This document shows positions 28,964 to 50,211 of a stretch of DNA of 60,887 bases, one piece after another; the stretch's first letter is position 1, and each line of letters begins with the position of its first letter. Made by a program: the position numbers and the translations under genes. A model generated the notes under the pieces. The model did not search any database and was not told the origin of the DNA. It saw nothing but the letters and a program-made list of their open reading frames with translations. Source of the DNA: Candidatus Limnocylindrales bacterium (GTDB lineage: Bacteria > Chloroflexota > Limnocylindria > QHBO01); NCBI GenBank assembly GCA_035540715.1, contig DATLGA010000095.1, forward strand, positions 1 to 60,887, read 5' to 3'.

Positions 28964-29057
28964 GAACCGATGCTAGCTTCCGGCGGCGCAGCGCGGGAAT
29001 GCGCCAGGTACCGACCAAGCGCAAGCTCGACGCGCACCCGGTAGCATTCGTCATTAC

Positions 29058-33854: not shown

Positions 33855-34015
33855 TGGGTCCGTTCTCCTGTGCCTCGTTACCGCTGCTCGGGCTCGTGCT
33901 CGGGGCTCGGGGCTCGGGGCTCGGACGTGCTCACAGCGGCTAGCAGATTGCGTGCCCGGTGCGCGGCCCGAACCCCCGTCGGTGCGCGGAGGGCAGGAGC
34001 CCTAGACTGGCCGGC

Positions 34016-35302
34016 ATGGATGTGCTGGTGCTCGGCGGCGGCGGGCGCGAGCACGCGCTCGCGTGGCGGCTCACGCACGACGAGGGCGTGCGTCGGGTCC
34101 GAATCGCACCGGGAAACGGTGGCACCGCGGCGGTCGCCGAGGCGGTCGAGGTGGACGCGCTGGATCCGCTCGCGGTCGCCCGGCATGCCGTCCGCGAGCG
34201 GTACGAGCTCGTCGTCATCGGGCCGGAGGCGCCGCTCGCCGCCGGAGTCGCCGACGAGGTGGCCGCCGCCCGCATCCCGGTCTTCGGGCCGACCCGCGCC
34301 GCGGCACGTCTCGAGTCGAGCAAGGCATTCGCGAAGCGCCAGCTGGAGCGGGCCGGCGTCCCGACGGCCGCATCGGCGACGTTCACCGATCCCGACACGG
34401 CGGTCGCGCACGTCCGTGCCTCCGAGCGGCCCCCGGTGGTCAAGGCCGACTGGCTCGCGGCGGGGAAGGGCGTCGTCGTCCCCGAGACGCACGACGAGGC
34501 CGAGGCCGCGATCCGTGCGCTCTTCGAATCGGTGAACGGCGCCGCACGCGTCGTGGTCGAGGAGCGGCTCGCCGGCCCGGAGGTCAGCGCGTTCGCCCTC
34601 GTCAGCGACGAAGCGGTCGTGCCACTGGCCGCGGCGTGCGACTACAAGCGGCTCCGCGACGGCGACGAGGGACCGAACACCGGTGGTATGGGCGCGTACT
34701 CGCCCGTCCCGTGGTTCGGTGCCCGCGCGCTCGAGCGTGCGACGGCCGACGTCTTCGAGCCGATCGCCTGGCGGATGGCGCGCGACGGCGTTCCGTATCG
34801 CGGCGTGCTCTACGCCGGGCTCATGCTGACCGAGCTCGGTCCGATGGTGCTCGAGTTCAATGCGCGCTTCGGCGATCCCGAGGCGCAGGTGCTGCTGCCG
34901 ATGCTCGACGGCGAGCTCTCCGCGGCGCTGCTCGGGGTCGCGGTCGGCGACCGTCATCTCATGGAGACCTCGCTCGGGACGCGGGCCGGCGCCGCGGTCG
35001 GTGTCGTGGTCGCGGCCGAGGGCTATCCCGACGCCCCGGTGACTGGGCGGCTCATCGGAGGGGCGGAGCCGTCGTCCGCCGGTGAGGACGGCGAACGGCT
35101 CTGCTTCCACGGTGCCACCCGCTGGACGATGGGCGGATACGAGACGGACGGCGGACGGGTCGTCACGATGGTCGGCCGTGGAGCCGACCTCGCCGCGGCG
35201 CGCCAGACCGCGTACGCGGCGGTCGCGGACGTCGAGCTCGACGGTGCACATCACCGGACCGACGTCGCGCTTCGAGAGATCGGCGCCGGGCGAGGCGAGT
35301 AG
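34016..35302 (+). CDS. purD: phosphoribosylamine-glycine ligase
   Basis: Start moved to ATG 34016 (MDVLVLGGGGREHALAWRL). 428 aa. Confidence 0.93.
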   Translation: MDVLVLGGGGREHALAWRLTHDEGVRRVRIAPGNGGTAAVAEAVEVDALDPLAVARHAVRERYELVVIGPEAPLAAGVADEVAAARIPVFGPTRAAARLESSKAFAKRQLERAGVPTAASATFTDPDTAVAHVRASERPPVVKADWLAAGKGVVVPETHDEAEAAIRALFESVNGAARVVVEERLAGPEVSAFALVSDEAVVPLAAACDYKRLRDGDEGPNTGGMGAYSPVPWFGARALERATADVFEPIAWRMARDGVPYRGVLYAGLMLTELGPMVLEFNARFGDPEAQVLLPMLDGELSAALLGVAVGDRHLMETSLGTRAGAAVGVVVAAEGYPDAPVTGRLIGGAEPSSAGEDGERLCFHGATRWTMGGYETDGGRVVTMVGRGADLAAARQTAYAAVADVELDGAHHRTDVALREIGAGRGE

Positions 35303-35359
35303 CGGCCCTCCGGTACGACCGCGCAGCGGCCGTCGACGGGACGCTATCCTGTGTCGGCG

Positions 35360-35845
35360 ATGCCCACCGTCGCCGTCCTGTGCGGCTCCCGTTCGGACCT
35401 CCCCAGCCTGAAGGGATGCTTCGACGTGCTCGACTCGTACGGCATCAGCTGGGAGGCTTCGGTCATCAGCGCACACCGCCAGGCCGATGCGCTCCATGCG
35501 TACGTCGACGAGGCGGAAGAAGCGGGCGTCCAGCTGTTCATCGGTGCTGCCGGCCTTGCCGCCCACCTGCCGGGGGTTCTCGCCAGCCTGACGGCCAAGC
35601 CGGTGATCGGGATCCCGCTGGACGGCGGGCAACTCGGCGGGGCCGATGCGCTGTACGCCGTCGTGCAGATGCCGCCGGGCGTCCCGGTGGCCACCGTGGC
35701 GATCGGCAGCGCCGGCGCCAAGAACGCCGCGCATCTCGCCGCCCGGATCCTGGCCCTGTCGGACCAGGCGGTGGCGCAGCGAGTCGCGGCGTTCCGGGAC
35801 GACCAGGCAGGCAGGGCCGAGCTCCGGGTCGACCCGCGCGCCTAG
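35360..35845 (+). CDS. purE: 5-(carboxyamino)imidazole ribonucleotide mutase
   Basis: [15 protein letters not shown]......ISAHR......[20 protein letters not shown] 35351 is an alternative start. Confidence 0.92.
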
Positions 35846-35848
35846 TCG

Positions 35849-37156
35849 ATGATCGATCGGTACGCGCTTCCCGAGCTCCGCGAGCTCTTCGGGGAGCGCC
35901 ACAAGCTCGACCTCTGGCTGCGGATCGAGCTCCTGGCGGTGGAGGCGCTGCGCGACGCCGGCGTCGTCCCGGAGGGTGACTGGGCCCGGATCGAGGCCGC
36001 GGCCGGCGAGGTCGATGCCGAGCGGGCCAGGGAGATCGAGCGCGAGTCGCACCACGACGTCATCGCCTTCCTGCGCTCCGTGACCGAGCGTCTCGGTCCC
36101 GAGGGCCGCTGGCTCCACTACGGCCTGACGAGCTCCGACGTCCTCGACACCGCGACCGCTGTCGTGCTTCGCGACGCGACCGCCGTCGTCGAGCGCGAGC
36201 TCGAGCGCCTGACCGAGGTGGTGCGCCGCCTGGCGCTCCAGTACCGAGAGACGCCGATGGTCGGCCGGAGCCACGGGATCCACGCCGAGCCGATCACGTT
36301 CGGCTTCAAGGCCGCCGGCTGGTTCGCCGAGCTCGGGCGGGATGCGGAGCGGCTCGCCAGGGCACGCGAGTCGGTCGCGGTCGGTTCTGTATCTGGCGCC
36401 GTCGGCACGCATGCCAACGTGAGCGCGGACGTCGAGCGGCACGTCCTCGACGGCCTCGGGCTGAACGTCGATCCGGCGCCGACCCAGGTCGTCAGCCGCG
36501 ATCGCCACGCGGAGCTCCTCACCACCCTGGCGATCCTCGGTGGCACGCTCGAGCGGGTCGCCGTCGAGATCCGTCATCTCCAGCGGACCGAGGTCGGCGA
36601 GGCGTTCGAGCCGTTCGCGTCGGGCCAGCAGGGGTCGAGCGCGATGCCCCACAAGCGCAACCCGATCCTGGCCGAGCGGATCAGCGGGATGGCACGCCTC
36701 CTTCGGGCCGATGCGCTCGTGGCGCTCGAGAACATGGCGCTCTGGCACGAGCGCGACATCAGCCACAGCTCGGCCGAGCGGTTCGTCTTCGAGCGCGCGC
36801 TCGGCGTGGCCGCCTACGCCACGCGGACGCTGGCCGATCTCCTCGACGGGCTCGAGGTCGACGGCGATCGCATGCGAGCGAACCTCGACCAGCTCGGTGG
36901 AATGGTCTACTCCGAGGCCCTGCTCCTCGCGATGGTGGCCAAGGGCGCCGAGCGGCAGCAGGCGTATCGAATCGTCCAGTCCGCCGCGAAGCGGGCCTGG
37001 GCGGGGGAGGTCACCTTCCGCGAGGCGCTCGCCGCGGATCCCGCTGTGGGCGAGTGGCTGACCGCCGACGAGATCGGCCGCGCGATGGACCTGCGACACC
37101 ATCTCGCCGGGATCGCGACGACCTACGACGCGCTCGGCCTCGACGCCGGCGGCTGA
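35849..37156 (+). CDS. purB: adenylosuccinate lyase
   Basis: [14 protein letters not shown].. and the fumarate-lyase signature ..[11 protein letters not shown]... 435 aa. Confidence 0.93.
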
Positions 37157-37169
37157 CCTGCGCGGGCCG

Positions 37170-38081
37170 ATGCGTCGCTGGTGGGCCGAGGCGCGCGCCG
37201 CCGCCGCGCACGTCGCCGATCATTCCGGCAGCTGGCTGCCCGGCGCGCTGGCCTGGTGCCTGGGGCTCGGCTGGATTCCACTGGTCCTCGTCGTCGCGCG
37301 CCCGCCCTCGGTGGCCGATCTGACCTTCCTCGGCGCGCGGATCTACACCGGCGCGGCATGGCCGTGGAACGCGATCGCGGCCGCAGCGGGCGGCCTGCTG
37401 CTCGTGGCCGTGGCGTTCCTGCTCGTCACCCTGGCCGAAGCCTCGCTGCTCGCTCGCGCCTCGCGCGTTCGGCCTTCGGCGGGCGTCGTCGGCCGGTTGC
37501 TCGGCATCGGTTTCGTGGCGGCCGCCCCGGTCCTCGCCGCGCTGCTGGCGACCGGCGTCGCCGCCGTCATGGTCGCGATGCGCGAGTTCACCGCGCCCAC
37601 ACCGGGGGACCCGATGCTGCGGACGATGGGCCGGCTGATGCCGTTCCTCGCCGGGGTCGGGCTGGCATGGCTGATCGGCGGCGTGGTTCACGCGGCCGCC
37701 TCCCGCGCAGCGGTCGGTCGCGCCGATGCCGGCATCGTCGACGCCCTGGCCGCGGTGCCACGCCGGCTCCGCCTGAGTGGGACGGCCGGGCTGGCCCACG
37801 CCCTCGTCCTGGCTCTGCTCCGGCTGGCCTACGTGGTGTTCGCCACGGTCCTGCTCGGCGTGCTGTGGGCGCCCATCGGCCTCCGGCTCGCGGGCGGCTC
37901 GATCGACCCCGCGGCCGTGCCGCTGCTGGTAGGCTTCGTGGCGATCTGGCTCTGCCTCCTCCTCGGCGGCGGCGCGCTCCACGCGTGGGGCTCGCTGACC
38001 TGGACGCGGGTGCTCGCGGCCCCGGCGCGCGGCGGAGGCCGGGCCGGACGGCACGCACCGGGAGACCCGCATCGCTCGTGA
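37170..38081 (+). CDS. hypothetical polytopic membrane protein
   Basis: 303 aa with about 7 hydrophobic segments. No motif recognised. The stop overlaps the next start as GTGA. Confidence 0.5.
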   Translation: MRRWWAEARAAAAHVADHSGSWLPGALAWCLGLGWIPLVLVVARPPSVADLTFLGARIYTGAAWPWNAIAAAAGGLLLVAVAFLLVTLAEASLLARASRVRPSAGVVGRLLGIGFVAAAPVLAALLATGVAAVMVAMREFTAPTPGDPMLRTMGRLMPFLAGVGLAWLIGGVVHAAASRAAVGRADAGIVDALAAVPRRLRLSGTAGLAHALVLALLRLAYVVFATVLLGVLWAPIGLRLAGGSIDPAAVPLLVGFVAIWLCLLLGGGALHAWGSLTWTRVLAAPARGGGRAGRHAPGDPHRS

Positions 38082-38590
38082 ACGTGGAACTGACGCTCGA
38101 GACCGAGCTCAACCTCGCCCTCCGCCTCACCGTGGGGCTCGTCCTGGGCGCGATCATCGGCTTCGAGCGCGAGCTGCATCGGCAGCCGGCAGGGTTCCGC
38201 ACGCACAGCCTCGTCTCGCTGGGCGCGGCGCTGTTCACGGTCGTGAGCGCGTTCGGCTTCGGGGGCGTCATGGTGGACCCGACCCGCATCGCCGCCCAGA
38301 TCGTGTCGGGCATCGGCTTCATCGGCGCCGGCACGATCCTGCAGTACCGCGGGCACATTCGCGGCCTGACGACGGCCGCCAGCCTGTGGTCGGTCGCCGC
38401 CATCGGCACCGCCGCGGGCGCCGGGCTCTTCGTCGTCGCGACGATCGGGACCGTGCTCATCCTGGTCGTCCTGACCATTCTCGACCACGTGGAGGGATAC
38501 GCCGCCAGACGGCTGCGGCTCCCCCCTGCGGGGTTCAAGCTCCCCGGCGAGGATCAGCCACACGACGGAAAAAGCGAGGACATGCCGTGA
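38078..38590 (+). CDS. mgtC: MgtC/SapB-family membrane protein
   Basis: Tail of track ORF 37181..38590: ..LRLTVGLVLGAIIGFERE....PAGFRTH.LV.LGAALF.......IAAQIVSGIGFIGAG.I. Confidence 0.85.
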   Translation: MNVELTLETELNLALRLTVGLVLGAIIGFERELHRQPAGFRTHSLVSLGAALFTVVSAFGFGGVMVDPTRIAAQIVSGIGFIGAGTILQYRGHIRGLTTAASLWSVAAIGTAAGAGLFVVATIGTVLILVVLTILDHVEGYAARRLRLPPAGFKLPGEDQPHDGKSEDMP

Positions 38591-39477
38591 CCCTGATGAC
38601 CACCGACCTGGCCGGCCTCTCGCTCGTGCACCGCGGCAAGGTGCGCGAGACGTACGAGGTCGACGACAGCCACCTGCTGCTCGTCGCCACCGACCGCCTC
38701 AGCGCCTTCGACGTCGTGTTCGATCAGCCGATTCCCGAGAAGGGAGCGGTCCTCACGCAGCTCTCGGCGTGGTGGTTCGAGCAGCTCTCGGCGCTCGGCC
38801 GCTCGCACTTCGTGAGCGCCGATCCGGCTCGACTGCCCGAGCAGGCGCGTACGCCCGAGATGGCCCGCCGCTCGATGCTCGTGCGCCGAGCCGAGCGGGT
38901 CGATGCCGAGTGCGTCGTGCGCGGCTACCTCGCCGGCTCCGGCTGGGCCGAGTACGGCCGGACCGGGGCCGTGTGCGGCCATCCGCTCCCCGACGGCCTG
39001 CGCGAGGCGGATCGCCTTCCGGAGCCGATCTTCACCCCGTCGACGAAGGCGGAGGTCGGCCACGACGAGAACATCACCCGTGACCAGTTGGCCGAGCTGG
39101 TCGGCAGCGACCTGGCCCGTCAGCTCGAGGATCGGTCGATCGCCCTCTACCTGGAGGGAGCGCGCCGAGCGGAAGCGGTCGGGCTGATCCTGGCCGATAC
39201 GAAGTTCGAGTTCGGTTGGATCGACGGCGAGCTGGCCGTCATCGACGAGGTGCTCACGCCGGACTCGAGCCGGTTCTGGGACGCCGAGCACTACGCCCCC
39301 GGCTCGTCGCCGCAGAGCTTCGACAAGCAGTTCGTGCGCGACTTCGTGGCCGCGTCGGGATGGAACAAGGAGCCGCCGGCGCCGACGCTGCCCGACGACG
39401 TCATCGCGGGTACCCGGAACCGCTACGTCGCCGCGTACGAGCGGCTCACGGGGCTGAGCTGGGACGGGCCGGCCTGA
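38587..39477 (+). CDS. purC: phosphoribosylaminoimidazole-succinocarboxamide synthase
   Basis: GTG 38587 (GTGA overlap) or ATG 38596. ..HRGKVRETYEVDDSHLLLVATDRLSAFDVV... ..ILADTKFEFG.. Confidence 0.92.
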   Translation: MTLMTTDLAGLSLVHRGKVRETYEVDDSHLLLVATDRLSAFDVVFDQPIPEKGAVLTQLSAWWFEQLSALGRSHFVSADPARLPEQARTPEMARRSMLVRRAERVDAECVVRGYLAGSGWAEYGRTGAVCGHPLPDGLREADRLPEPIFTPSTKAEVGHDENITRDQLAELVGSDLARQLEDRSIALYLEGARRAEAVGLILADTKFEFGWIDGELAVIDEVLTPDSSRFWDAEHYAPGSSPQSFDKQFVRDFVAASGWNKEPPAPTLPDDVIAGTRNRYVAAYERLTGLSWDGPA

Positions 39478-39488
39478 CGGTGCGCTGG

Positions 39489-39764
39489 ATGGCCGAGGTC
39501 CACGTGGCCCTCCGTCCGGGGATCGCCGACCCGGAGGGGCAGACGATCGCGTCCGGCCTGCGGTCGCTCGGCTACGAGTCGGTGTCCGGCGTTCGGACCG
39601 GCAAGCTCATGCGCATCGACTTCGAGGCCGACGACCCGGTAGCAGCCGAGGCGACGGTCGCCGACATGTGCCGCCGCCTGCTCGCCAACCCGGTCATGGA
39701 GACGGCGAGCTGGGAGCTGCGCGCCGCCGAAGAGATGCCGGCGAACGGGGCCGTCACCGGATGA
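39489..39764 (+). CDS. purS: phosphoribosylformylglycinamidine synthase subunit PurS
   Basis: MAEVHVALRPGIADPEGQTIASGLRSLGY..V..VR.GK.... About 91 aa. GTG 39480 is an alternative start. Confidence 0.88.
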   Translation: MAEVHVALRPGIADPEGQTIASGLRSLGYESVSGVRTGKLMRIDFEADDPVAAEATVADMCRRLLANPVMETASWELRAAEEMPANGAVTG

Positions 39765-40507
39765 CCCTGCTCGCGGGCCGGCCGCGGGTGGCCGTCGCCG
39801 TCTTCCCGGGAACGTGGAGCGAGCGGGACTTCCTCCACGTGGCCGAGGCCGTCCTCGGCTGGGACGCGCGTCTGGTCTGGCACGCCGAGCCGGAGCTGGG
39901 CCCGGCCGATGCCGTCGTCCTCCCCGGCGGCTTTGCCCACGGCGATCACCTCCGCACCGGCGCGATCGCCCGCTTCTCGCCGGTCATGCGCGCCGTCGAG
40001 TCATTCGCTGCAGCCGGCGGCCCGGTCATCGGGTCGTGCAACGGGTTCCAGATCCTCACCGAGGCCGGCCTGCTTCCGGGCGCGCTCATGCGCAATGACC
40101 ACCTGGAGTTCCGCTGCGACTGGCAGTGGCTGCGCGTCGAGCGCCCCGAGCATGCGCCGGCATGGCTCTCGACCCTCACCGACGGGCAGACGATCCGTCT
40201 GCCGATCAGCCACGGCGAGGGCCGCTACGTCGCGGACGCGGCCACGCTCGACGCGCTCGAGGCGGAGGGCCGGATCGTGCTCCGCTATGCCGACGAGGCC
40301 GGGACGGTCGACGACGCGGCCAACCCGAACGGCTCGGAGCGCGGAATCGCGGGGATCGTGAACCGGGGTGGCAACGTGCTGGGCCTCATGCCCCATCCCG
40401 AGCGTGCGGCCGAGGACGACGTCGGCGGAATCGACGGACTGTGGCTGTTCCGCTCGCTGGAACGCTGGCTGCAGGAGCAGCCGGCGGCCGCCGAGCGTCG
40501 GCTATGA
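39761..40507 (+). CDS. purQ: phosphoribosylformylglycinamidine synthase subunit PurQ (glutaminase)
   Basis: ATG 39761 forms an ATGA overlap with the purS stop. ..VAVAVFPGT..ERD....VLPGGF..GD.LR.GA.......GSCNGFQIL.E.GLLPG.....HGEGR.....GLMPHPER. Confidence 0.92.
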   Translation: MTLLAGRPRVAVAVFPGTWSERDFLHVAEAVLGWDARLVWHAEPELGPADAVVLPGGFAHGDHLRTGAIARFSPVMRAVESFAAAGGPVIGSCNGFQILTEAGLLPGALMRNDHLEFRCDWQWLRVERPEHAPAWLSTLTDGQTIRLPISHGEGRYVADAATLDALEAEGRIVLRYADEAGTVDDAANPNGSERGIAGIVNRGGNVLGLMPHPERAAEDDVGGIDGLWLFRSLERWLQEQPAAAERRL

Positions 40508-41718
40508 TCGGCCCCGACCCCGAGTCAGCGTCGCAGGAGGGCGAACCACGCATGGAGAACGACGAGCGCGATCGCCGCGACTGGCCCGAGCAGGACGACG
40601 GCGGATCGCAGCCCGTGGAGCCCGACTGGGGACGGTCCGAGGATCCGGCTCTTCCCGCCGGCGAGCCGACGCATACCGAGGACCCGACGACCATCGACGA
40701 GGGGACGGGCCGGGACGACGCCACCGCGCCGGCCGAGATCGAGAGCTGGCCCAGCCAGGAAGCTGCCACGGCCGAGCCCGCCGATCGCGCCGGCGAGGAG
40801 GCCTGGCCGGCGAGCGCGCCCGAGCATCGCGACGAGCCGAGTGCCGAGGAGCGGCCACCGCAGGAGGTGGAGGCCTATCCGGCCGCCGCGGCGGAGGTCG
40901 CGGAACCGCCGGCCGCGGCGACGACGGCGCCGGCTCACAGCGTCCCGGACGCCCAGGCCACCACGGGCGAAAGCACCCAGTGCCCGCGCTGTGGAACGGA
41001 GAATCGCCCGGGGTTGTCGTTCTGCCGCAACTGCGGCCAGCGGCTCGTGGCCGCCGGCGTGTCGAGCACCGTCGAGCGCCCCGGAGCGCCGGAAGGCACG
41101 ATGGCCTGCCCGCGCTGCGGCACGCACAACCGGGCCGGCGTGGGTTTCTGCCAGAACTGCGGCGCCAACCTGCGCGGCACGTCGGAGGGCTACGTGCCGC
41201 CGGCGGTGGCCGGCGAGCGCGAGGCGGCTTCGGCCGAGCCGGCGCGCCGCGGAGCCATCCTGGGGCCGGTCGTCCTGCTCATCGGCCTGATCGGGCTCGT
41301 CACCGCCTACCTCCTGCCCTTCGCCTACGGCGCCGGGTCCCTGTTCGAGCGCGCGCTCGGCACCGGCGGCTACGGCGTCGCGTTCTGGAACGGCTACCCG
41401 GACGTCGCCGCGTCGCTGGCCGACCAGGCCTACTTCGGCCTCGCCGCGCCCGTCCCGCTACTCGGCCTCCTCCTCGTCGCGCTCGCTGTCGCGGGATTCG
41501 TCCGGGCGGCTCCGGGGCCGATGCAGACCGTCGGCCTGGTCGTGGCGCTGTTGTGGAGCATCGGGCTCATCGTGTTGTTCGGCGTCGTCGAGCTGGCCGG
41601 AAACTGGACGGGCGACATCGTCGGACTGCTGCGTGACCTGACCCCGGCGGGGATCATCTTCTTCCTCTCCGGCCTCATCATCCTGATCGGCGTGCTGACC
41701 CGCTTCGGCAGGAGCTGA
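40504..41718 (+). CDS. membrane protein: acidic disordered N-terminus, two zinc ribbons and ~4 TM helices
   Basis: ATG 40504 forms an ATGA overlap with the purQ stop. About 145 aa are D/E/P-rich. Then CPRCGTENRPGLSFCRNCG and CPRCGTHNRAGVGFCQNCG, followed by hydrophobic helices. Confidence 0.7.
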   Translation: MIGPDPESASQEGEPRMENDERDRRDWPEQDDGGSQPVEPDWGRSEDPALPAGEPTHTEDPTTIDEGTGRDDATAPAEIESWPSQEAATAEPADRAGEEAWPASAPEHRDEPSAEERPPQEVEAYPAAAAEVAEPPAAATTAPAHSVPDAQATTGESTQCPRCGTENRPGLSFCRNCGQRLVAAGVSSTVERPGAPEGTMACPRCGTHNRAGVGFCQNCGANLRGTSEGYVPPAVAGEREAASAEPARRGAILGPVVLLIGLIGLVTAYLLPFAYGAGSLFERALGTGGYGVAFWNGYPDVAASLADQAYFGLAAPVPLLGLLLVALAVAGFVRAAPGPMQTVGLVVALLWSIGLIVLFGVVELAGNWTGDIVGLLRDLTPAGIIFFLSGLIILIGVLTRFGRS

Positions 41719-41722
41719 TCCG

Positions 41723-42484
41723 ATGGCTCGCTACTGCGCCAGCTGCGGGACCGAGGTCGACGACACCGCGGTCTTCTGCCCGACCTGCGGCCAGCCGATC
41801 GAGGACGCCGACGAGGTCGACATCCCGCCGGCGCCGGCATGGCCGGACCCCGCGGCCAGCGACCTCGAGCCCGAGGCCCCCGGCCATCGTCCCGAGCCGT
41901 CGGATCGGCGCCGCGGCGACGAGCGCGATCCGGCTCGCGCGCGGGAAGAGGGCGAGGAGGACCACGACGAGGAGCCGTCGCCGGACGCGCCCACGCGGAT
42001 CGAGGCTCGTCCGGCGCCGATCGGCACGGCCACTCCGGCCGACCGCCCTCGACCTCCGGCGCGGGAGGAACGCGCCGAGGACCGGCAGACCGGCGGCGGC
42101 CTGCCGTCCATCGACCTCCCGATCACGATGCCGGTCACGCTGTCCGGCTGGCTCGTCGGCATCGGCTCGGTGCTGGCGGTCATCGGCCTCGTCGTCATCC
42201 TGGTGGTCGGCGTCCTGAACGTCATCGACCTGCTCCTCCTGCTGGCGTTGCTCGCCGTCGCGGCGACCGTCTTCTTCGCGGCCCACCTGCCCGGTGTCCC
42301 GCACCTGCGTCTCGTGACGCTCGTCGTGGCCCTCATCGCCTTCGGGGTCGCTCTCGACCGGGTCGGCTTCCGCGGCGGAGGCGTCGGCGAGCTGCTCCTG
42401 TTCCTGGGCACCGCGGCGGCGGCGATCGGCGCGATCATCCTCGAGCTCGGCCACGACCAGCCGCTCGGCGGGCCGCAGCGCTGA
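41723..42484 (+). CDS. membrane protein: N-terminal zinc ribbon, charged disordered linker and ~4 TM helices
   Basis: MARYCASCGTEVDDTAVFCPTCG, then about 110 aa rich in P/E/D/R, then hydrophobic helices. Starts 4 nt after the previous stop and ends 4 nt before purL. Confidence 0.7.
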   Translation: MARYCASCGTEVDDTAVFCPTCGQPIEDADEVDIPPAPAWPDPAASDLEPEAPGHRPEPSDRRRGDERDPARAREEGEEDHDEEPSPDAPTRIEARPAPIGTATPADRPRPPAREERAEDRQTGGGLPSIDLPITMPVTLSGWLVGIGSVLAVIGLVVILVVGVLNVIDLLLLLALLAVAATVFFAAHLPGVPHLRLVTLVVALIAFGVALDRVGFRGGGVGELLLFLGTAAAAIGAIILELGHDQPLGGPQR

Positions 42485-42488
42485 CCCG

Positions 42489-44699
42489 ATGACGCTCGCG
42501 CCACCGCCCGCCGAGCAGCGCCACGGGCTGACGGAGCGCGAGTACGAGCTCGTCATCGAGGCCCTCGGCCGCCCGCCGAATGGCGTGGAGCTCGGCATGT
42601 TCGGTGCGATGTGGTCGGAGCACTGCGCCTACAAGCACTCCCGGCCGCTGCTCGGCCGCCTGCCGAAGGACGGTGAGGCGGTGCTCGTCGGACCGGGCGA
42701 GAACGCGGGGGCCGTCGACATCGGCGACGGCCTGGCGGTCGTCTTCAAGGTCGAGTCGCACAACCATCCGTCCGCCGTCGAGCCGTACCAGGGCGCGGCG
42801 ACCGGCGTTGGCGGCATCATCCGCGACATCTTCACGATGGGTGCCCGCCCGATCGCGCTCCTCAACAGCCTGCGCTTCGGTCCGCTCGAGGCCGATGCGG
42901 AGACCGATCCGGCCACCGCGGCGCGCAACCGGTACCTGCTCGGCGGCGTGGTCGGCGGCATTGCCGGCTACGGCAACTGCATCGGCATCCCGGACGTCGG
43001 TGGCGAGATCACCTTCGACGCGTCGTACTCCGGCAACCCGCTCGTCAACGCGATGTGCGTCGGGATCGCGCGCCACGACGAGATCACGCTGGCGCGGGCG
43101 GCCGGCGCGGGCAACGTGCTCCTGCTCGTCGGGGCGGCGACCGGCCGTGACGGCATCCAGGGGGCGAGCTTCGCGTCGGCCACGCTGGCCGAGGACAGCG
43201 ACGAGCGGCGGCCCGCGGTCCAGGTCGGCAATCCATTCCTCGAGAAGCTGCTCATGGAGGCCTGCCTCGAGCTCGCGCGCGGCGACTCGGTCGTGGCGAT
43301 GCAGGATCTCGGCGCCGCCGGGCTCACCTGCGCGCTCGCGGAGCTCACCGCTCGCGGCGGCGTCGGCGCCGAGGTGGATCTCGATGCCGTCCCGCGGCGC
43401 GAGGACGGCATGAGCCCGTACGAGGTCCTCCTGTCGGAGTCGCAGGAGCGGATGCTGATCGTCGTTCCGCCCGGTCGCGTCGGCGAGGTGCAGGCGGCCT
43501 TCGAGCGCTACGAGCTCCACGCGGCGGAGATCGGCCACGTCATCGACGAGCCGATCATCCGCGCTCGCGGCGCTGGCGAGCTCGTGTGCTCCGTGCCGGG
43601 CCGTGCTCTGGCCGACGACGCTCCCCGCTACGAGATCGCGGGCACGGCCTCGCGACCGACCGATGTGGACCTGGAATCGCTCGCCGCACAGGCGATCGAC
43701 TCCTCGGTCGTGCTCGAGCTGATCGCGTCCCCGAACGCGCGCGACCGCAAGCCGATCTGGCGCCGCTACGACCACATGAACGGCACGAACACGCTCGTCG
43801 GTCCCGGTGGAGGTGACGCGGCCGTGCTGCGGATCAAGGGGACGGATCGGGCCATCGCTCTTTCGATCGACGGCCCCGGCCCCGCTCGGGCCGGCGCGCT
43901 CGACCCGTTCGTGGCCGGGGCCTCGGCAGTCCTCGAGGGCGCGATGAACGTCGCCTGCAGCGGGGCGCGCCCGATCGGCGTCACCGACTGCCTCAATTTC
44001 GGCTCGCCCGAAACCGAGCTGGGCGCCTGGCAGCTCGAGCGAGCGATCGACGGGATCGCCGAGGCATGCCGCGCGCTCGGCGTGCCCGTCGTGTCGGGCA
44101 ACGTGAGCCTGTACAACGAGACCCCGGCCGGACCGATCCTCCCCACGCCGGTCGTCGGCACGGTCGGCCTCCTCGAGCACCGCGACGAGCGCGTGTCGAT
44201 GGCCTGGGCCGGGGGCGACGAGCTCTGGCTGCTGGGGGAGCCGGCCGACGACGCCGATGCGCTCGCCGCATCGGAGCTGGCGTGGCGACGCAACCTCCGC
44301 GGCGGCAGCCCGCGGCTCGCGATCGAGACCGCGGTCGCGCTCGTCGACCTGCTGCCACGGCTCGCCCGCTCGCGCACGGCACGAGCGGCGCACGATCTCT
44401 CCGTCGGCGGCCTCGCCGTCGCGCTGGCTCGCATGGCGATCGCCTCCGGGATCGGTGCCTCGATCGAGCTCGAGACGGATCGCCCCACCGCCGCGGCCTT
44501 CGGCGAGCGAGCCGGCCGCGCCATCGTGGCGCTCGACCCGGCGGCGGTACCCGCACTGCGCGCCGCGGCCGACGATGCGGGCGTCGCGGCGCGTCGGCTC
44601 GGCCGGGCGGGCGGGGACAGGCTCACGATCCTGGCCGGCCACGCGTCGGTGACGCTCGGGCTGGGGGAGCTCGGCAGCGCCTGGCGGACCGCCTTCTAG
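42489..44699 (+). CDS. purL: phosphoribosylformylglycinamidine synthase subunit PurL
   Basis: 736 aa. ..FGAMWSEHCAYKHSR....GENAGAVD....VFKVESHNHPSAVEPYQGAATGVGGIIRD.. Confidence 0.95.
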   Translation: MTLAPPPAEQRHGLTEREYELVIEALGRPPNGVELGMFGAMWSEHCAYKHSRPLLGRLPKDGEAVLVGPGENAGAVDIGDGLAVVFKVESHNHPSAVEPYQGAATGVGGIIRDIFTMGARPIALLNSLRFGPLEADAETDPATAARNRYLLGGVVGGIAGYGNCIGIPDVGGEITFDASYSGNPLVNAMCVGIARHDEITLARAAGAGNVLLLVGAATGRDGIQGASFASATLAEDSDERRPAVQVGNPFLEKLLMEACLELARGDSVVAMQDLGAAGLTCALAELTARGGVGAEVDLDAVPRREDGMSPYEVLLSESQERMLIVVPPGRVGEVQAAFERYELHAAEIGHVIDEPIIRARGAGELVCSVPGRALADDAPRYEIAGTASRPTDVDLESLAAQAIDSSVVLELIASPNARDRKPIWRRYDHMNGTNTLVGPGGGDAAVLRIKGTDRAIALSIDGPGPARAGALDPFVAGASAVLEGAMNVACSGARPIGVTDCLNFGSPETELGAWQLERAIDGIAEACRALGVPVVSGNVSLYNETPAGPILPTPVVGTVGLLEHRDERVSMAWAGGDELWLLGEPADDADALAASELAWRRNLRGGSPRLAIETAVALVDLLPRLARSRTARAAHDLSVGGLAVALARMAIASGIGASIELETDRPTAAAFGERAGRAIVALDPAAVPALRAAADDAGVAARRLGRAGGDRLTILAGHASVTLGLGELGSAWRTAF

Positions 44700-45811
44700 T
44701 CGGTCGAGGGCCGGCCTCGACGCCCCGTTGGGCGACGCCGCGGCTCGTCGAGGTCGCGGATCCCGAGTGCGGCCACGATCGGGTCCTCCTCGGTGAGGTG
44801 GACCTTCGCGCGCCGCAGCGCGCGCCGCTCGAGCAGCGCCGTCGTCTCGTCGGCGACGAGCAGCGCCTCGGCGGCGTCCATGTGTCGTGCTCGCCGTCGC
44901 GCCGCCACGATGACGAAGGTGGCGGCGAGCGCGATGACGAAGGCCGCCAACCAGGCCATCGTCACCACCGTCATGCCGGCGAGCTCGTCGTCCACGCGAG
45001 GCTCGGCGCTTCCGTCGGTCCGCGGGGGCTCCACGGGCGCGGCGGTGCCGCCCTGCGAGCTCCGCCGCTCCTCGGTCGCCACGCGGCCGGCCGGCTGAGA
45101 GCCGGCGGGCGCGGCGTCCGCGGTGTCGCCGGCCGCCGTGCCCTCCTTCGGGTGGTCGGCGGCGGTGGGCGACGGCAACGGCGACGGCGACGGCGCCGGG
45201 GTCGTGGCCGTCCGGCCTGCGCCATCCGTCGCGCGCGCCGCGGCGGCGTCATCAATCGATGTCGCCTCCCCCTCGGACGGCGTGCGAGCGGCCACGGGCT
45301 CCGGAGCGGCGGTCGGCTCCGAGACGGCCGATGCGGGTGACGCCGGCGCGGCCGATGCGATCGGCTCCGTCGAGCCGGGTGCCTCGGGACTTCGCGCGGC
45401 GCTCGGCGAGCTGTGGCCCGGAGCCGGCTCGGCCGGCTCGTGCGATGCCTCGTCGCCAGCGACGTCGAGCGTGGGGCCGATCAGCGTGGCCGTGTTGCCG
45501 AGGACGGCCGAGGCGACGAAGGCGACCGGCCAGCTGCCGGCGGGCAGGGTGGTGCTCGTGCTCCATCGGCCGTCGAGCAGGACCCCCGACGAGAGCTCCA
45601 TGTCCAGCACGCGGCCCGCGACATGGGCCTCCACGCGCACCGCGTCGAACAGGCCGACGTAGTCGACCTCGAGCGTGAATACCGTCGACGTCGTACCACT
45701 GGGCGGCGTTGCCTGGCCATTCAGCAGCGCATTGTCCCCGCCCGACACGGCCGACGGCGCTCCCAGGAGCGCCGCGAGGATGGCCGGGACCATGAGGGCG
45801 AGCCGACCCAT
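44696..45811 (-). CDS. hypothetical exported, membrane-anchored protein with a long P/A/S/T-rich linker
   Basis: Start moved to ATG 45811 (MGRLALMVPAILAALLGAPSAVSG signal). A beta-rich domain of about 110 aa, a low-complexity region of about 170 aa, one TM (MAWLAAFVIALAATFVIVAA) and a cytoplasmic tail of about 60 aa. The start overlaps the upstream stop (TGATG). Confidence 0.55.
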   Translation of the reverse strand: MGRLALMVPAILAALLGAPSAVSGGDNALLNGQATPPSGTTSTVFTLEVDYVGLFDAVRVEAHVAGRVLDMELSSGVLLDGRWSTSTTLPAGSWPVAFVASAVLGNTATLIGPTLDVAGDEASHEPAEPAPGHSSPSAARSPEAPGSTEPIASAAPASPASAVSEPTAAPEPVAARTPSEGEATSIDDAAAARATDGAGRTATTPAPSPSPLPSPTAADHPKEGTAAGDTADAAPAGSQPAGRVATEERRSSQGGTAAPVEPPRTDGSAEPRVDDELAGMTVVTMAWLAAFVIALAATFVIVAARRRARHMDAAEALLVADETTALLERRALRRAKVHLTEEDPIVAALGIRDLDEPRRRPTGRRGRPSTD

Positions 45812-47493
45812 CAGCCCGATGCCTCTCGAGCGCGCGGGCTCCGCCTGCGGGCGGAGCGTCCAGCCGATGCCGTCGAAGCCGCCGGCACCGGACGCTGGCC
45901 GGGGTCGAGCCCGTCGTCGCTCACCGGCAGATGCGGCAGGCCGTCCCGCGCCCGCTCGTGGAGCCGGTACACCTCCTCGAGGCCGTCCGGCGGCACGCTG
46001 TCGGCGTAGACGGTGCAGAAGACGTCGACGACGTGCGGGTCGAACTGCGTGCCGGCGTGGCGGCGCAGCTCGGCCAGGGCCTCCTCGTGCGCGAGGGCCC
46101 CGCTGTACGGCCGCTCGTGAACCATCGCGTGGTAGGCGTCGGCCACCGCGACGATGCGCGCGCCGAGCGGGATCTCGTTGCCGCGGAGGCCGTGCGGGTA
46201 CCCGGCGCCGTTGAAGTGCTCGTGGTGATGGAGCACGACCGGGATGGCGTCGCGGAGGCTCGAGGCCTGCTCGAGGATCACCTGCCCGATGCGCGGGTGC
46301 TCGCCGATCGCCTGCCACTCGGCGTCGGACAGGGTCGCCGGCTTGTCGAGAATCGACTCCGGAATGGCGATCTTGCCCAGGTCGTGGAGGAGCGACGCAA
46401 TCCGGATGCGCTCGATCTCCTCGTGCGGCAGGCCCATCTCGAGCCCGATCCCGGTCGCCAGCGAGGCGATCATGTCGGATGGACGGCCGCGATGGTGGGG
46501 TTGGGGGGCCAGCACCGATGCAAGCGCCCGGGTCGCCGTGTCGCTCGCCCAGCGGCCGATGGCCGTCGCCTGCGCACGACGATCCGCCGAGATCGGCGCG
46601 CGCCGCACCGGCGCCTCCTCGTCGAGGTCGCGAAACACGTAGGTGCGGTTGCGCCCCAGCGACTTCGCCGCGTACATCGCCGCATCGGCGCGGTCCACCA
46701 GCATGTCCAGCTGGAGCTCGCTGCCGTGGCCGCCGGCGATCCCAACGCTGATCGTGACCTGGATCTCTCGCTCCTCGGCGATGCGCAGGGGCTCGGCCAT
46801 GACGACGCCGCGCAGGTCCTCGGCCAGCCCGACGGCATCCTGGGGAAGCGTCTCGGGGAGGATGAGCATGAACTCCTCACCGCCGTACCGCCCGAACGTG
46901 TCCGAGGCTCGGACCGAGTTGGCGATGAGGCGGGCGACCTGCCGGAGCACCGCGTCGCCGGAATTGTGCCCATAGGTGTCGTTGATCGGCTTGAATCGGT
47001 CGATGTCGATGAAGGCGACGCTGAGCGGCTTGGCGTGGCGGACCGCTCGCTCGACCTCGGCGGTGAGCGTGGCGAGCAGCGTCTCGCGGTTCGGGACTCC
47101 CGTGAGGCGGTCGCGGGTCGCACGGACCTCCGTCTGGAGGAAGGCGCCGCTCGCCTGGTTGAACGCCCGAGCGAGCCGTCGCTCGGCCGGGATGCCGCCG
47201 ACGCGCAGCTGAACCGGGGTGTCGGTCTCGAGCGTCCGCTCCAGGGCGTGCGCGATCCGGTTGAGGCGCCAGCCCACGTAGCTCCAGGCCAGCAGCGCCA
47301 TCGTCGTCATGCCGGCCGCGACCGCGATCGCGAGGACGAGGGCGAGGGTCGGGCGCTCCGCCGGGGTCGCCTGCACGGTGACGGCCAGGGCGATGGTGAC
47401 GAGTGCCGCCACGGCGATCGGTGCCATGAAGCCGAGGGCACGGACGAAGGTCAGCACGTCGACAGCATGCCCCGGGGGTCCTGTCAGCACCAT
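45811..47493 (-). CDS. membrane-bound diguanylate cyclase (GGDEF) fused to an HD-GYP phosphodiesterase domain
   Basis: Start moved to ATG 47493. Two N-terminal TM segments. GGDEF domain with I-site RASD and active-site GGEEF. HD-GYP domain with ..LLHDLGK.. and ..HHEHFNGAGYP.. Confidence 0.88.
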   Translation of the reverse strand: MVLTGPPGHAVDVLTFVRALGFMAPIAVAALVTIALAVTVQATPAERPTLALVLAIAVAAGMTTMALLAWSYVGWRLNRIAHALERTLETDTPVQLRVGGIPAERRLARAFNQASGAFLQTEVRATRDRLTGVPNRETLLATLTAEVERAVRHAKPLSVAFIDIDRFKPINDTYGHNSGDAVLRQVARLIANSVRASDTFGRYGGEEFMLILPETLPQDAVGLAEDLRGVVMAEPLRIAEEREIQVTISVGIAGGHGSELQLDMLVDRADAAMYAAKSLGRNRTYVFRDLDEEAPVRRAPISADRRAQATAIGRWASDTATRALASVLAPQPHHRGRPSDMIASLATGIGLEMGLPHEEIERIRIASLLHDLGKIAIPESILDKPATLSDAEWQAIGEHPRIGQVILEQASSLRDAIPVVLHHHEHFNGAGYPHGLRGNEIPLGARIVAVADAYHAMVHERPYSGALAHEEALAELRRHAGTQFDPHVVDVFCTVYADSVPPDGLEEVYRLHERARDGLPHLPVSDDGLDPGQRPVPAASTASAGRSARRRSPRAREASG

Positions 47494-47678
47494 GGCTCGA
47501 TGGTCCCGAGGTGCGCGCGGGCATCGCCGTCCCGGAGTCCCGACACGCCGGAGTGCGGAGCGGTGCAGTACTCGTGCGGTACCTCCGGCGAGACGTGCGG
47601 CGGGCGGGCGTGCCACCACCCCGGCCGGGGCTATGATGGACCGGTGCCCGGCCTGCACCGACCCGCCTGAACCGCTCC

Positions 47679-49166
47679 GTGCGACCCCGTCCCGGACCTC
47701 CGCACGTCGCGCCGGGTGAGGCGCTGCCGCTCTACGAGCCGCACGGGCCGCGCGAGGAGTGCGGAGTCGTCGGCATCTGGGCCCCATCGGCCCCGGTGGC
47801 GCGACTGGCGTACCTCGGGCTCCACGCGCTCCAGCACCGTGGCCAGGAGTCGGCCGGCATCGCGGTCGGTGACGGCGCACGCCTGAGCCTTCACAAGCGG
47901 CTCGGGTTGGTGACCGCCGTCTTCGACGAGGAGACGCTCGATCGCCTCGAGGGACGCGACGCGGACGAAGCCGCGCCGCGGGCCGCGATCGGGCACACGC
48001 GCTACAGCACCACCGGCTCGAACACCCTGCCGAACGTCCAGCCGGTCTACGCGCAGACCGATCGGGGCGAGCTCATGCTCGGCCACAACGGCAACCTGAC
48101 CAACGCCCGGTGGCTGCGCGACGAGCTCACCGAGCAGGGCGTCGAGTTCGCGTCGGCGTCGGACACGGAGGTGCTCGCCAAACTGATCGCGCATGCCCCC
48201 GGGCGCTCCTGGGCGCAGCGGGTCGACCACGCGTTCCATCGCGCGACCGGCGCCTACACGTTCACGATGCTCACCGCCGATGCGCTGGTCGCTGCGCGCG
48301 ACCCGGTCGGCTTCCGCCCGATGGCGCTCGGACGCCTCCCCGGCGGTGGCTGGGCCGTCGCCTCGGAGAGCGCGGCGCTCGACGCGATGGGTGCGCAGTT
48401 CGTGCGTGACATCGAGGCCGGCGAGGTCCTGACGATCGACACCGAGGGAGTGCATTCGCACCGATCGTCGCGCGCCACGCCGTCGCGGGAGCGGCTCTGC
48501 ATCTTCGAATTCGTGTACCTCGCCAGGCCCGACAGCGTGATGGAGGGGCGGCTCCTCTACGAGGCGCGGCTCGAGATGGGCCGGGTGCTGGCGCGCGAGC
48601 AGCCGGCCGACGCCGACCTCGTCATCGCGGTGCCGGACTCCGCCGTTCCGGCGGCCATCGGCTATGCCGAGGAGGCCGGCCTGCCGTACCGGGAGGGGCT
48701 CATGAAGTCCCGCTACGTCGGCCGGACCTTCATCCAGCCCGCGCAGCGGAGCCGCGAGGCCGCGGTGCGGCTGAAGTTCAATCCGCTGCCGGAGCTCCTG
48801 TCCGGCAGGCGCGTCGTGGTGGTGGACGACTCGATCGTGCGCGGAACGACGACCGGCCCGATCGTCGAGATGCTGCGCCGCGCCGGCGCGGCCGAGGTGC
48901 ACGTGCGGATCCACTCGCCGCAGATGAAGTACCCCTGCTACATGGGCGTCGACACGGGGCGTCGCGACGAGCTGATCGCCGCGACGCACACGACCGACGA
49001 GATCCGCCGGGCGATCGGCGCGGACAGCCTCGGCTACCTCTCGAAGGAGGGGCTTCTCGCCGCCGTCGGCGGCCGCACCGAGGCCCGCTGCACCGCGTGC
49101 TTCGACGGCTCCTATCCGACCGACGTCCCACTCGAGCTCGACAAGCTGGCCATGGAGCGGCGCTGA
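47679..49166 (+). CDS. purF: amidophosphoribosyltransferase
   Basis: ..EECGVVGIW.. (N-terminal nucleophile Cys after a propeptide) and PRTase motif ..VVVVDDSIVRGTT... The start (GTG 47679) is uncertain and no clear RBS was seen. Confidence 0.9.
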   Translation: MRPRPGPPHVAPGEALPLYEPHGPREECGVVGIWAPSAPVARLAYLGLHALQHRGQESAGIAVGDGARLSLHKRLGLVTAVFDEETLDRLEGRDADEAAPRAAIGHTRYSTTGSNTLPNVQPVYAQTDRGELMLGHNGNLTNARWLRDELTEQGVEFASASDTEVLAKLIAHAPGRSWAQRVDHAFHRATGAYTFTMLTADALVAARDPVGFRPMALGRLPGGGWAVASESAALDAMGAQFVRDIEAGEVLTIDTEGVHSHRSSRATPSRERLCIFEFVYLARPDSVMEGRLLYEARLEMGRVLAREQPADADLVIAVPDSAVPAAIGYAEEAGLPYREGLMKSRYVGRTFIQPAQRSREAAVRLKFNPLPELLSGRRVVVVDDSIVRGTTTGPIVEMLRRAGAAEVHVRIHSPQMKYPCYMGVDTGRRDELIAATHTTDEIRRAIGADSLGYLSKEGLLAAVGGRTEARCTACFDGSYPTDVPLELDKLAMERR

Positions 49167-49169
49167 GGC

Positions 49170-50201
49170 GTGGCGCGCACGTATCGGGAGGCCGGCGTCG
49201 ACGTGGCCGAGGCGCAGCGCGCGGTCGAGCGCATCGGCCAGGCTGCGGCGTCGACCGTCACGCCGGCGGTCCTCGGCGGCATCGGCGGCTTCGGCGGGCT
49301 CTTCCGCTTCGATCCATCCACCCACCCGGACCCGGTGCTCGTCTCGAGCACGGACGGCGTCGGCACGAAGCTCAAGGTCGCCATCGCACTTCGGCGGCAC
49401 GACACCATCGGCGTCGACCTCGTCAACGCGTGCGTCAATGACATCGCGGTCACCGGCGCCGATCCACTGTTCTTCCTCGACTACCTGGCCGTCGGCGATT
49501 TGCGTGCCGATGTCGTCTCGGAGATCGTCACCGGCGTGGCGGCCGGGTGCGCGGCGGCCGGGATCCCGCTCATCGGCGGCGAGACGGCCGAGATGCCCGA
49601 CCTGTACCGCGAAGACGACTACGACCTCGCGGGCTTCGTCGTCGGCGTCGTGTCGCGAGTCGACCTCATCGACGGCTCGCACGTGCGTCCGGGCGATGCG
49701 GTGATCGGGCTGCCGTCGACCGGGCTGCACACCAACGGGTACACCCTCGCGCGGCGCGTCCTTCCGGAGGACACCTGGACCCGGCCGATGCCCGATTCCG
49801 AAGAGACGGTCGGAGATGCGCTCCTGGCGCCCCATCGGTCGTACCTGGACGACCTTCGCAGCCTGCGCGCCGCCCTCCGTGCAGCCGGCGGTGACCTGGC
49901 CGCGCTCGCGCACCTGACCGGCGGCGGATGGGAGGGCAACGTCCCGCGCACGCTCCCCGACGGGCTCGGAGTCGAGATCGAGACCGGCTCGTGGCCGGTG
50001 CCGCCGATCTTCAGCCTCATCCAGCGCTGTGGCGACATCGCCGACGCCGAGATGGTCCGCACCTTCAACGTCGGCATCGGCATGACCGCGGTCGTCGATG
50101 CCGACCTCGTCGACGTGGCGCTCGAGGCCGTTGCCGATGCGCGACGCATCGGGACGGTGGTCGAGATGCCGGACGGCGAACCGCGCGTCCGCTTCGGATG
50201 A
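49170..50201 (+). CDS. purM: phosphoribosylformylglycinamidine cyclo-ligase
   Basis: MARTYREAGVDV......DGVGTKL......DLVN.CVNDI...GA.PLFFLDY. Confidence 0.93.
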   Translation: MARTYREAGVDVAEAQRAVERIGQAAASTVTPAVLGGIGGFGGLFRFDPSTHPDPVLVSSTDGVGTKLKVAIALRRHDTIGVDLVNACVNDIAVTGADPLFFLDYLAVGDLRADVVSEIVTGVAAGCAAAGIPLIGGETAEMPDLYREDDYDLAGFVVGVVSRVDLIDGSHVRPGDAVIGLPSTGLHTNGYTLARRVLPEDTWTRPMPDSEETVGDALLAPHRSYLDDLRSLRAALRAAGGDLAALAHLTGGGWEGNVPRTLPDGLGVEIETGSWPVPPIFSLIQRCGDIADAEMVRTFNVGIGMTAVVDADLVDVALEAVADARRIGTVVEMPDGEPRVRFG

Positions 50202-50211
50202 GCCGGCTCGC

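Follow-up and report, generated by a model that had tools for sequence, protein, structure and literature searches.

The stretch of DNA analysed here, referred to as the window, comprises 60,887 nucleotides from a Candidatus Limnocylindrales bacterium (contig DATLGA010000095.1, assembly GCA_035540715.1) and contains a purine biosynthesis (pur) operon in which two open reading frames, termed ORF1 and ORF2, lie between purQ and purL. The flanking genes code for the glutaminase and large subunits of formylglycinamidine ribonucleotide (FGAM) synthase and were identified by Pfam and by matches in the PDB, whereby PurQ residues 7-238 align with Thermotoga maritima PurQ (3D54_D) and PurL residues 12-734 align end to end with Thermus thermophilus PurL (3VIU). 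The two ORFs were singled out in an original prediction made from the sequence alone; their presence at this position is confirmed, as are the 4-nt gaps which separate ORF1 from ORF2 and ORF2 from purL. The GC content of the window is about 73%. GC at third codon positions (GC3) amounts to 0.91 in ORF1 and 0.92 in ORF2, compared to 0.90-0.93 in the pur genes, and the frame signal changes exactly at the gene borders, such that both ORFs are coding sequences rather than chance frames of high-GC DNA. More than 900 homologues were found for ORF1, the best 120 at 55-76% identity, in records named Candidatus Limnocylindria or Chloroflexota. For ORF2 the number of homologues exceeds 500; apart from one record labelled Candidatus Binatia, they all belong to Limnocylindria or other Chloroflexota. 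The GC3 values and these numbers together answer the reservation, raised at the outset, that the ORFs could have a chance origin. ORF1 and ORF2 are genuine, class-specific integral membrane proteins of the Limnocylindria.

The beginning of ORF1 had to be revised. The ATG at 40504, which is in frame and shares the sequence ATGA with the purQ stop codon TGA, would give an ORF1 of 404 residues and was originally taken to be the start; the alignment of homologues, the search for Shine-Dalgarno (SD) sites and the length of the spacer all favour the ATG at 40552 instead. The residue equivalent to M17 (ATG 40552) is the first residue in 18 of 21 aligned homologues, one more being N-terminally truncated, and those which start there open with MxxDERDRRD. 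In the window, AGGAGG (40535-40540) is located 11 nt before ATG 40552, and AGGAGG or GGAGG was detected 4-13 nt upstream of the equivalent start in 58 of 72 orthologues, while the same scan detected no SD site upstream of ATG 40504. Across species the gap between purQ and ORF1 has a median of 43 nt; in most loci ORF1, with AGGAGG ahead of it, follows purQ by 30-51 nt, and in many an in-frame stop codon rules out an upstream start. ORF1 thus most likely begins at ATG 40552 and not at ATG 40504, and is best annotated at 40552-41718 with its own ribosome-binding site.

ORF1 is built of an acidic, Pro/Ala-rich tail, followed by a double zinc ribbon and four transmembrane (TM) helices (Table 1). 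The tail carries Trp-Pro motifs, which in the window read DWPEQ, IESWPSQ and EAWPAS, together with EVEAYPA. Its length varies across orthologues (median 163 residues, net charge -31, Lys 0.1%), with a median of 4 Trp residues, of which 78% are directly followed by Pro; AEIESWPSQ, AWPTEPPAAGS, xWPTxxPER and PPSEVEAYPA are kept. The two ribbons, C160-x2-C163-x10-C174-x2-C177 and C202-x2-C205-x10-C216-x2-C219 (numbered from 40504), score 42.6 bits against a gathering threshold of 27.3 for Pfam DZR, 44.1 against 25 for Zn_Ribbon_1 and 56.6 against 28 for DUF7577, which places them in all three families. The Cys ligands of the ORF1 and ORF2 ribbons are all invariant in the alignments. The membrane domain was modelled by AlphaFold2 with a predicted local distance difference test score (pLDDT) of mostly 85-94 across TM helices 2-4. 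According to hydropathy, its outer loops measure 40 and 17 residues, the former being aromatic and conserved. Invariant charged or polar residues (E363, D371, R377, R334 and Q341) are positioned at the ends of the membrane helices. In the predicted topology the ribbons of both ORF1 and ORF2 face the cytoplasm.

ORF2 is preceded by an AGGAG site 8 nt upstream of its start, within the 3' end of ORF1. Its N-terminal ribbon follows the consensus RFCxNCGTEVDExAxFCPTCGQPI, and a PPAPAWP motif comes next, succeeded by a variable acidic, Pro-rich linker which extends to approximately 42127 (median 100 residues and net charge -10 across orthologues). The commonest context of Trp in ORF2 is APAWP[DE]. 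AlphaFold2 places its helices at residues 136-162, 167-187, 193-215 and 221-244, with a pLDDT of about 70. The architecture proposed originally therefore stands for both proteins: the two CxxC-x10-CxxC ribbons of ORF1 and the single one of ORF2 all exceed the Pfam gathering thresholds, the acidic low-complexity segments are present, and four TM helices per protein are predicted by AlphaFold2 and hydropathy.

Short Trp-Pro motifs in acidic, Pro-rich, Lys-free tails are common to both proteins, in the form of xSWPSQ/AWPTEPP in ORF1 and PAPAWP[DE]P in ORF2, and to judge from their sequences they may constitute a shared linear motif for one partner. The possibility that ORF1 and ORF2 are paralogues was rejected beyond the ribbon, since BLASTP aligns the ribbons only and the membrane domains reach an hhalign probability of 0.1.

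Comparison with known families confines the resemblance to the ribbons. These belong to the Pfam zinc-ribbon modules DZR (PF12773), Zn_Ribbon_1 (PF13240), Zn_ribbon_3 (PF13248) and DUF7577 (PF24463), with scores above their thresholds, yet these families cover only the ribbon of 20-45 residues and carry no function; no described family includes the membrane domains, Trp-Pro tails or position in the operon. In NCBI, the homologues are named "zinc-ribbon domain-containing protein" or "DUF7577 domain-containing protein". A search of the ribbons against PDB sequences returned only generic ribbons (DZANK1, ribosomal eL40 and bL32) at E values of at least 0.006. The membrane domains of ORF1 and ORF2 have no match in Pfam or NCBIfam, and a phmmer search of the ORF1 membrane domain against 1.84 billion representative proteins gave 31 hits, all at least 46% identical and none outside the family. 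Foldseek searches of the AlphaFold2 models against the PDB gave best E values of 0.22 for ORF1 and 0.14 for ORF2, the matches being generic four-helix bundles (synaptogyrin, claudin and designed channels). No defence system in PADLOC-DB matches ORF1, ORF2, the multi-pass membrane protein of 303 residues encoded upstream in the operon (unk303) or a third zinc-ribbon protein of the window. The generic ribbon families are already known; no description appears to exist of the membrane domains and Trp-Pro tails, of the operon position kept throughout the class, or of the interleaving presented below.

Three known systems invite comparison. The TcaA-type proteins (NCBIfam NF053815) share with ORF1 and ORF2 a layout in which a cytoplasmic ribbon at the N terminus precedes a membrane segment. 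In TcaA, however, a single TM helix is combined with a large outer domain, whereas ORF1 and ORF2 possess four TM helices each and hardly any outer domain. Identity with TcaA was rejected, as the score reached 16.8 bits (cutoff 550) and the alignment was limited to the ribbon. The second system is that of MgtC and its small partners. MgtC of Salmonella binds the a subunit of F1Fo ATP synthase, and the membrane peptide MgtR controls MgtC. An MgtC-family gene (38078-38590) is a translationally coupled neighbour in the ORF1 family, and a membrane partner of MgtC would be a known type of relationship; yet neither ORF1 nor ORF2 matches the MgtC family (PF02308), ORF1 is homologous to neither MgtC nor MgtR, and its putative link to MgtC comes from gene order. 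The third system is the PurS-PurQ-PurL complex (PDB 3D54), considered together with the eukaryotic purinosome. The genes for ORF1 and ORF2 are embedded among, and very likely co-transcribed with, those of this complex; the two proteins have no relation in sequence or fold to any subunit, and ORF1 is also found without these genes. We know of no membrane-anchored zinc-ribbon component of either the FGAM synthase complex or any purinosome.

The order of the genes is widely conserved. A scan of one genome per species detected relatives in 231 species genomes, and 80 loci were fetched, which together with two earlier ones (L001 and L002) gives 82 loci. The order unk303-MgtC-like-purC-purS-purQ-ORF1-ORF2-purL is found in all 82 wherever the contig reaches far enough, apart from the exceptions given here. 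The question whether purQ-ORF1-ORF2-purL is a conserved order in the clade, posed by the original prediction, is thereby settled in favour of conservation. ORF1 and ORF2 are separated by 2-4 nt at 53 of the 68 loci compared, and most loci have 4-10 nt between ORF2 and purL. In one locus (L080, 5998-7100, from the low-coverage metagenome-assembled genome MGR_bin359), purQ, a short-tailed ORF1 and purL are present and ORF2 is absent, with ORF1 abutting purL; either ORF2 is dispensable there, or the assembly is imperfect. The MgtC-like gene is missing from six loci (L006, L007, L008, L011, L029 and L091), all of which keep unk303 and ORF1, and is thus not an obligate member of the set.

Certain records call for caution. 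Six loci (L016, L018, L028, L038, L081 and L082) are labelled Steroidobacteraceae or Candidatus Angelobacter, yet contain a locus of Limnocylindria type with an ORF1 identity of 53-64%, which suggests mislabelled or mis-binned metagenome-assembled genomes. In three contigs from long-read metagenomes (L087, L088 and L089), genes including purB, purL, the UPF0182 gene and ORF1 are split or truncated, and this looks like assembly indel errors rather than real pseudogenes.

The degree of conservation differs greatly among the products of the operon. Mean pairwise identities across 41 species, calculated for nine operon proteins or segments, are 87% for the ORF1 ribbons, 79% for PurC, 77% for PurQ, 71% for PurL, 67% for the MgtC-like protein, 64% for the ORF1 membrane domain, 62% for the ORF2 ribbon, 47% for the ORF2 membrane domain and 35% for the fast-evolving unk303. 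Constraint among these nine is thus strongest on the ribbons of ORF1.

ORF1 and ORF2 are not the sole foreign genes in the pur cluster, which also includes UPF0182, unk303, the MgtC-like gene and others (Table 1). The classical order of the pur genes is E-B-C-S-Q-L-F-M-N, as in Bacillus. In the window, a canonical purD/E/B/C/S/Q/L/F/M/N operon is interleaved with an independent non-purine set, each of the two keeping its own order. The non-purine set consists of UPF0182, unk303, the MgtC-like gene, ORF1, a GGDEF-HD gene on the opposite strand, a second membrane double-ribbon protein, a CPBP protease and RadC. Within it, unk303 is located between purB and the MgtC-like gene, for which the start is either GTG 38078, in a GTGA overlap with the unk303 stop, or GTG 38084. 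The further zinc-ribbon protein, encoded after purN, has two N-terminal TM helices followed by a C-terminal double ribbon, and its trio with CPBP and RadC is kept in every locus that reaches there (L083, L086, L088, L089, L090 and L091). The overall layout of the window is repeated in L083 and L089.

Table 1. Genes and protein segments of the pur cluster in the window (positions on the forward strand).
Feature	Position	Strand	Evidence or remark
UPF0182-family large membrane protein	28977-32018 (start codon not refined)	+	Pfam UPF0182, E 4.6e-262; first of the non-purine set
Peptidase_S8	32091-34001	opposite	
purD, purE, purB	33944-37156		
unk303, orphan multi-pass membrane protein, 303 residues	37170-38081	+	no Pfam match; about 6 hydrophobic segments
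MgtC-family membrane protein, short form	38078-38590	+	Pfam MgtC, E 4.8e-40
purC	38596-39477	+	canonical by Pfam
purS	39516-39764	+	canonical by Pfam
purQ (FGAM synthase glutaminase subunit)	39761-40507	+	Pfam GATase_5, E 1.8e-38
purQ-ORF1 spacer, 44 nt, with AGGAGG at 40535-40540	40508-40551	+	sequence, SD scan
ORF1, 388 residues from the conserved start	40552-41718 (stop 41716-41718)	+	GC3, homologues, alignment, SD scan
ORF1 acidic, Pro/Ala-rich disordered tail with Trp-Pro motifs	40552-40966	+	alignment motifs, composition
ORF1 double zinc ribbon	40981-41160	+	Pfam DZR, Zn_Ribbon_1, DUF7577 above threshold
ORF1 four-helix membrane domain, N-in/C-in (predicted)	41269-41694	+	AlphaFold2, hydropathy, positive-inside rule
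ORF2, 253 residues	41723-42484	+	GC3, homologues
ORF2 N-terminal zinc ribbon, C5-x2-C8-x10-C19-x2-C22	41735-41788	+	Pfam Zn_Ribbon_1, 31.8 bits (cutoff 25)
ORF2 PPAPAWP motif	41825-41845	+	P35, A37, P38, W40, P41 invariant (alignment)
ORF2 four-helix membrane domain (predicted)	42128-42454	+	AlphaFold2
purL (FGAM synthase large subunit)	42489-44699	+	Pfam FGAR-AT_linker, AIRS, AIRS_C
GGDEF + HD (HD_5) protein, between purL and purF	45811-47880 (start codon not refined)	-	Pfam GGDEF, HD_5, HD
purF, purM, purN	47637-50805		
Third membrane zinc-ribbon protein, directly after purN	50887-51486	+	Pfam DZR, hydropathy
CPBP/Rce1-like intramembrane protease	51498-52493		Pfam Rce1-like
RadC	52564-53271		Pfam RadC

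An additional long ORF (44696-46318, minus strand) lies between purL and the GGDEF-HD gene. Without a match in Pfam, it exhibits a Pro/Ala-rich region, a TM segment at the C terminus and possibly a signal peptide; its size differs greatly among relatives, in which 98-370 residues are called. An Rfam scan for a riboswitch controlling the operon gave as its sole hit a distant flavin mononucleotide (FMN) riboswitch (RF00050, 81 bits) at 4013-4174 on the plus strand, upstream of plus-strand genes and unrelated to the pur cluster.

The strongest evidence on the role of ORF1 comes from relatives in which the non-purine set occurs by itself. Three such loci, L086 (a 1.36-Mb contig), L088 (a 252-kb contig) and L091 (GCA_035251655.1), were reached via a diverged homologue from an exhaustive search, and no pur gene and no ORF2 were found within them. 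Besides GCA_035251655.1, the pur-less contigs are ENA ERZ25039541 contig_4439 and ERZ25039536 contig_36548. Their ORF1 is a short form of about 253 residues, which comprises the ribbons and the membrane domain, lacks the acidic tail and is about 50% identical to the core of ORF1 in the window. The order is guaB/guaA, then UPF0182, unk303-like, in some cases MgtC-like, short ORF1, GGDEF-HD on the opposite strand, the double-ribbon membrane protein, CPBP and RadC, after which GSDH (opposite strand) and GlgE may follow; both are present in L091. The loci are collinear with the window, in all three including UPF0182. In L086 and L088 the stop codon of the MgtC-like gene overlaps the start of the short ORF1 (ATGA), and in L091 a GTGA overlap couples the short ORF1 directly to the unk303-like gene. 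A GGAGG site is located upstream of the short ORF1, and the GGDEF-HD gene comes directly after it. The unk303 gene is present in long-form loci as well as in L086, L091 and L085, the latter being a 1.2-kb contig with an unk303-like gene followed by a single-ribbon relative of ORF1. Two further short contigs fit the same pattern. The constant companions of ORF1 are thus unk303 and the MgtC-like protein, with UPF0182 upstream, and GGDEF-HD, not PurQ or PurL.

Two histories would account for these arrangements: the short-form lineage may have lost the pur blocks from this place by deletion or relocation, or else the long-form lineage may have gained them by insertion. In neighbour-joining trees of unk303 and MgtC, L086 groups with the deep long-form loci L059, L069 and L078-L080. 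With the ORF1 core alone, L086 is the outgroup, on a long branch and in a tree built without outgroup sequences. The distance of the ORF1 core in the pur-less lineage is 0.68-0.81, compared to a median of 0.40 among the long forms.

These observations bear directly on whether the two proteins serve purine synthesis. Co-expression with the FGAM synthase genes, as implied by the coupling noted in the original prediction, is very likely, in view of the tight ORF1-ORF2-purL arrangement and of the lack of terminator-like sites above shuffled expectation in the region; the accompanying promoter scan likewise gave nothing above that level. The further proposal, that ORF1 is a dedicated tether or regulator of the PurLSQ complex, is not supported, since in the short ORF1 of the three pur-less loci the core of the protein is retained with no FGAM synthase genes next to it. 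ORF1 hence does not co-occur obligately with purL, purQ and purS; ORF2 does in the loci seen, though L080 has pur genes without it, and both ORF2 and the acidic tail of ORF1 are seen only in loci with pur genes. Searches in Pfam and NCBIfam at E values up to 0.1-1 gave no match of ORF1 or ORF2 to a PurS, GATase_5 or AIRS/AIRS_C domain. No paper linking zinc-ribbon membrane proteins with purL or purQ was found in the literature. To judge from sequence and gene order, ORF1 probably does not serve a purine enzyme.

The explanation put forward here, and held with about even confidence, is that ORF1 lies between purQ and purL through operon history and shared transcription, not as a subunit or tether of FGAM synthase, and that it forms a membrane assembly with its coupled neighbours. 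The first part follows from the non-purine set, which keeps its order and orientation with or without the pur genes. ORF1 would assemble in the membrane with the coupled MgtC-like protein and/or unk303, and with ORF2 where present. Its near-invariant double ribbon may provide a cytoplasmic docking surface for a conserved partner, to which the long form would add motif-bearing tails. ORF2 would be a lineage-specific accessory partner of ORF1, a pairing supported by the gap of 2-4 nt between their genes in most loci and by their common design of ribbon and Trp-Pro tail. Transcription with the pur genes could in turn tie the amounts of these proteins to growth-linked nucleotide synthesis.

Several points weigh against this explanation. 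Gene order is the sole basis for the partners proposed for ORF1. ORF2 and the ORF1 tail accompany the pur genes exclusively, with ORF2 always just before purL, which leaves some probability to a purine role for those parts. The greater divergence of the ORF1 core in the pur-less lineage could mean that a partner disappeared along with the pur genes. Even the pur-less loci are located just downstream of guaB and guaA, which are themselves purine nucleotide genes, and the absence of pur genes from L086, L088 and L091 was established at the level of the locus.

The alternative that survives best, although we consider it unlikely, draws on the same points: PurL, or PurLSQ, would be brought to the membrane or regulated there by ORF2 and the Trp-Pro tail of ORF1, with the ORF1-ORF2-purL coupling setting the stoichiometry. 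It would explain why purL is directly preceded by ORF2 in almost every long-form locus, usually at a distance of 4-10 nt, and why the three pur-less loci lack ORF2 as well as the ORF1 tail, as expected of parts which serve the pathway. The faster evolution of the ORF1 core in those loci is consistent with it, and the Trp-Pro motif in both proteins could bind one common partner. Yet the ORF1 core persists without pur genes, and L080 retains purQ-ORF1-purL with no ORF2. Docking insertions or added domains in PurQ and PurL were sought by alignment to 3D54 and 3VIU and none were found, both enzymes being canonical from end to end. Mirror-tree partial correlations of ORF1 and ORF2 with PurL, PurQ and PurS do not exceed 0.39, except for 0.43 between ORF2 and PurS, and none rises above the PurC-PurL control of 0.50. 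The operon moreover holds other, unrelated membrane genes. A more specific version, in which ORF2 and the ORF1 Trp-Pro tail anchor or regulate PurL (PurLSQ) at the cytoplasmic face of the membrane and the pur-less relatives have lost or moved the pathway along with these parts, is decidedly improbable; if true, the Limnocylindria would have a membrane-associated, purinosome-like step in purine synthesis.

It is very doubtful that ORF1 and ORF2 are small channel or transporter subunits, whose four-helix bundles, alone or with unk303 and the MgtC-like protein, would let an ion or a purine-related solute cross the membrane. The invariant E363, D371, R377, R334 and Q341 at the ends of the ORF1 membrane helices would suit such a role, as would the adjacency and coupling of ORF1 to an MgtC-family protein, a family tied to Mg2+ and ATP homeostasis. 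The proteins, however, bear no likeness to transporter families in Pfam, NCBIfam or the PDB, Foldseek yields only generic four-helix matches with E values above 0.1, and MgtC itself is, to our knowledge, not a transporter. An equally slim chance is given to a role as membrane sensors or adaptors, feeding GGDEF-HD or another regulator via the zinc ribbons. The convergently oriented GGDEF-HD gene directly after ORF1 in the pur-less loci fits this idea, and the ribbons weakly resemble those found at the N termini of kinases and phosphatases (21 bits for 4Cys_prefix_kin, cutoff 24; PRK14559), yet these matches are below threshold and of generic ribbon type only, the outer loops of ORF1 are small, and no output domain is recognisable. 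Finally, the notion that both ORFs are untranslated chance frames, plausible in that a GC content near 73% makes long spurious ORFs common in all frames, is already refuted and has practically no probability left, given that the high third-position GC is confined to the proposed frames, conservation is strong at the protein level, where the Cys ligands are invariant and indel lengths are multiples of three, SD sites are conserved and orthologues number in the hundreds.

The Limnocylindria are abundant, uncultured Chloroflexota of soil and freshwater. The present work defines two class-specific membrane protein families of this group and corrects the start of one of them. The striking position of ORF1 within the FGAM synthase gene trio is explained better by operon history than by enzyme function, and the relatives which carry the non-purine set alone offer a natural comparison for this interleaved genome pattern. 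The near-invariant double ribbon of ORF1, more conserved than the surrounding enzymes, marks a strongly constrained putative interaction.

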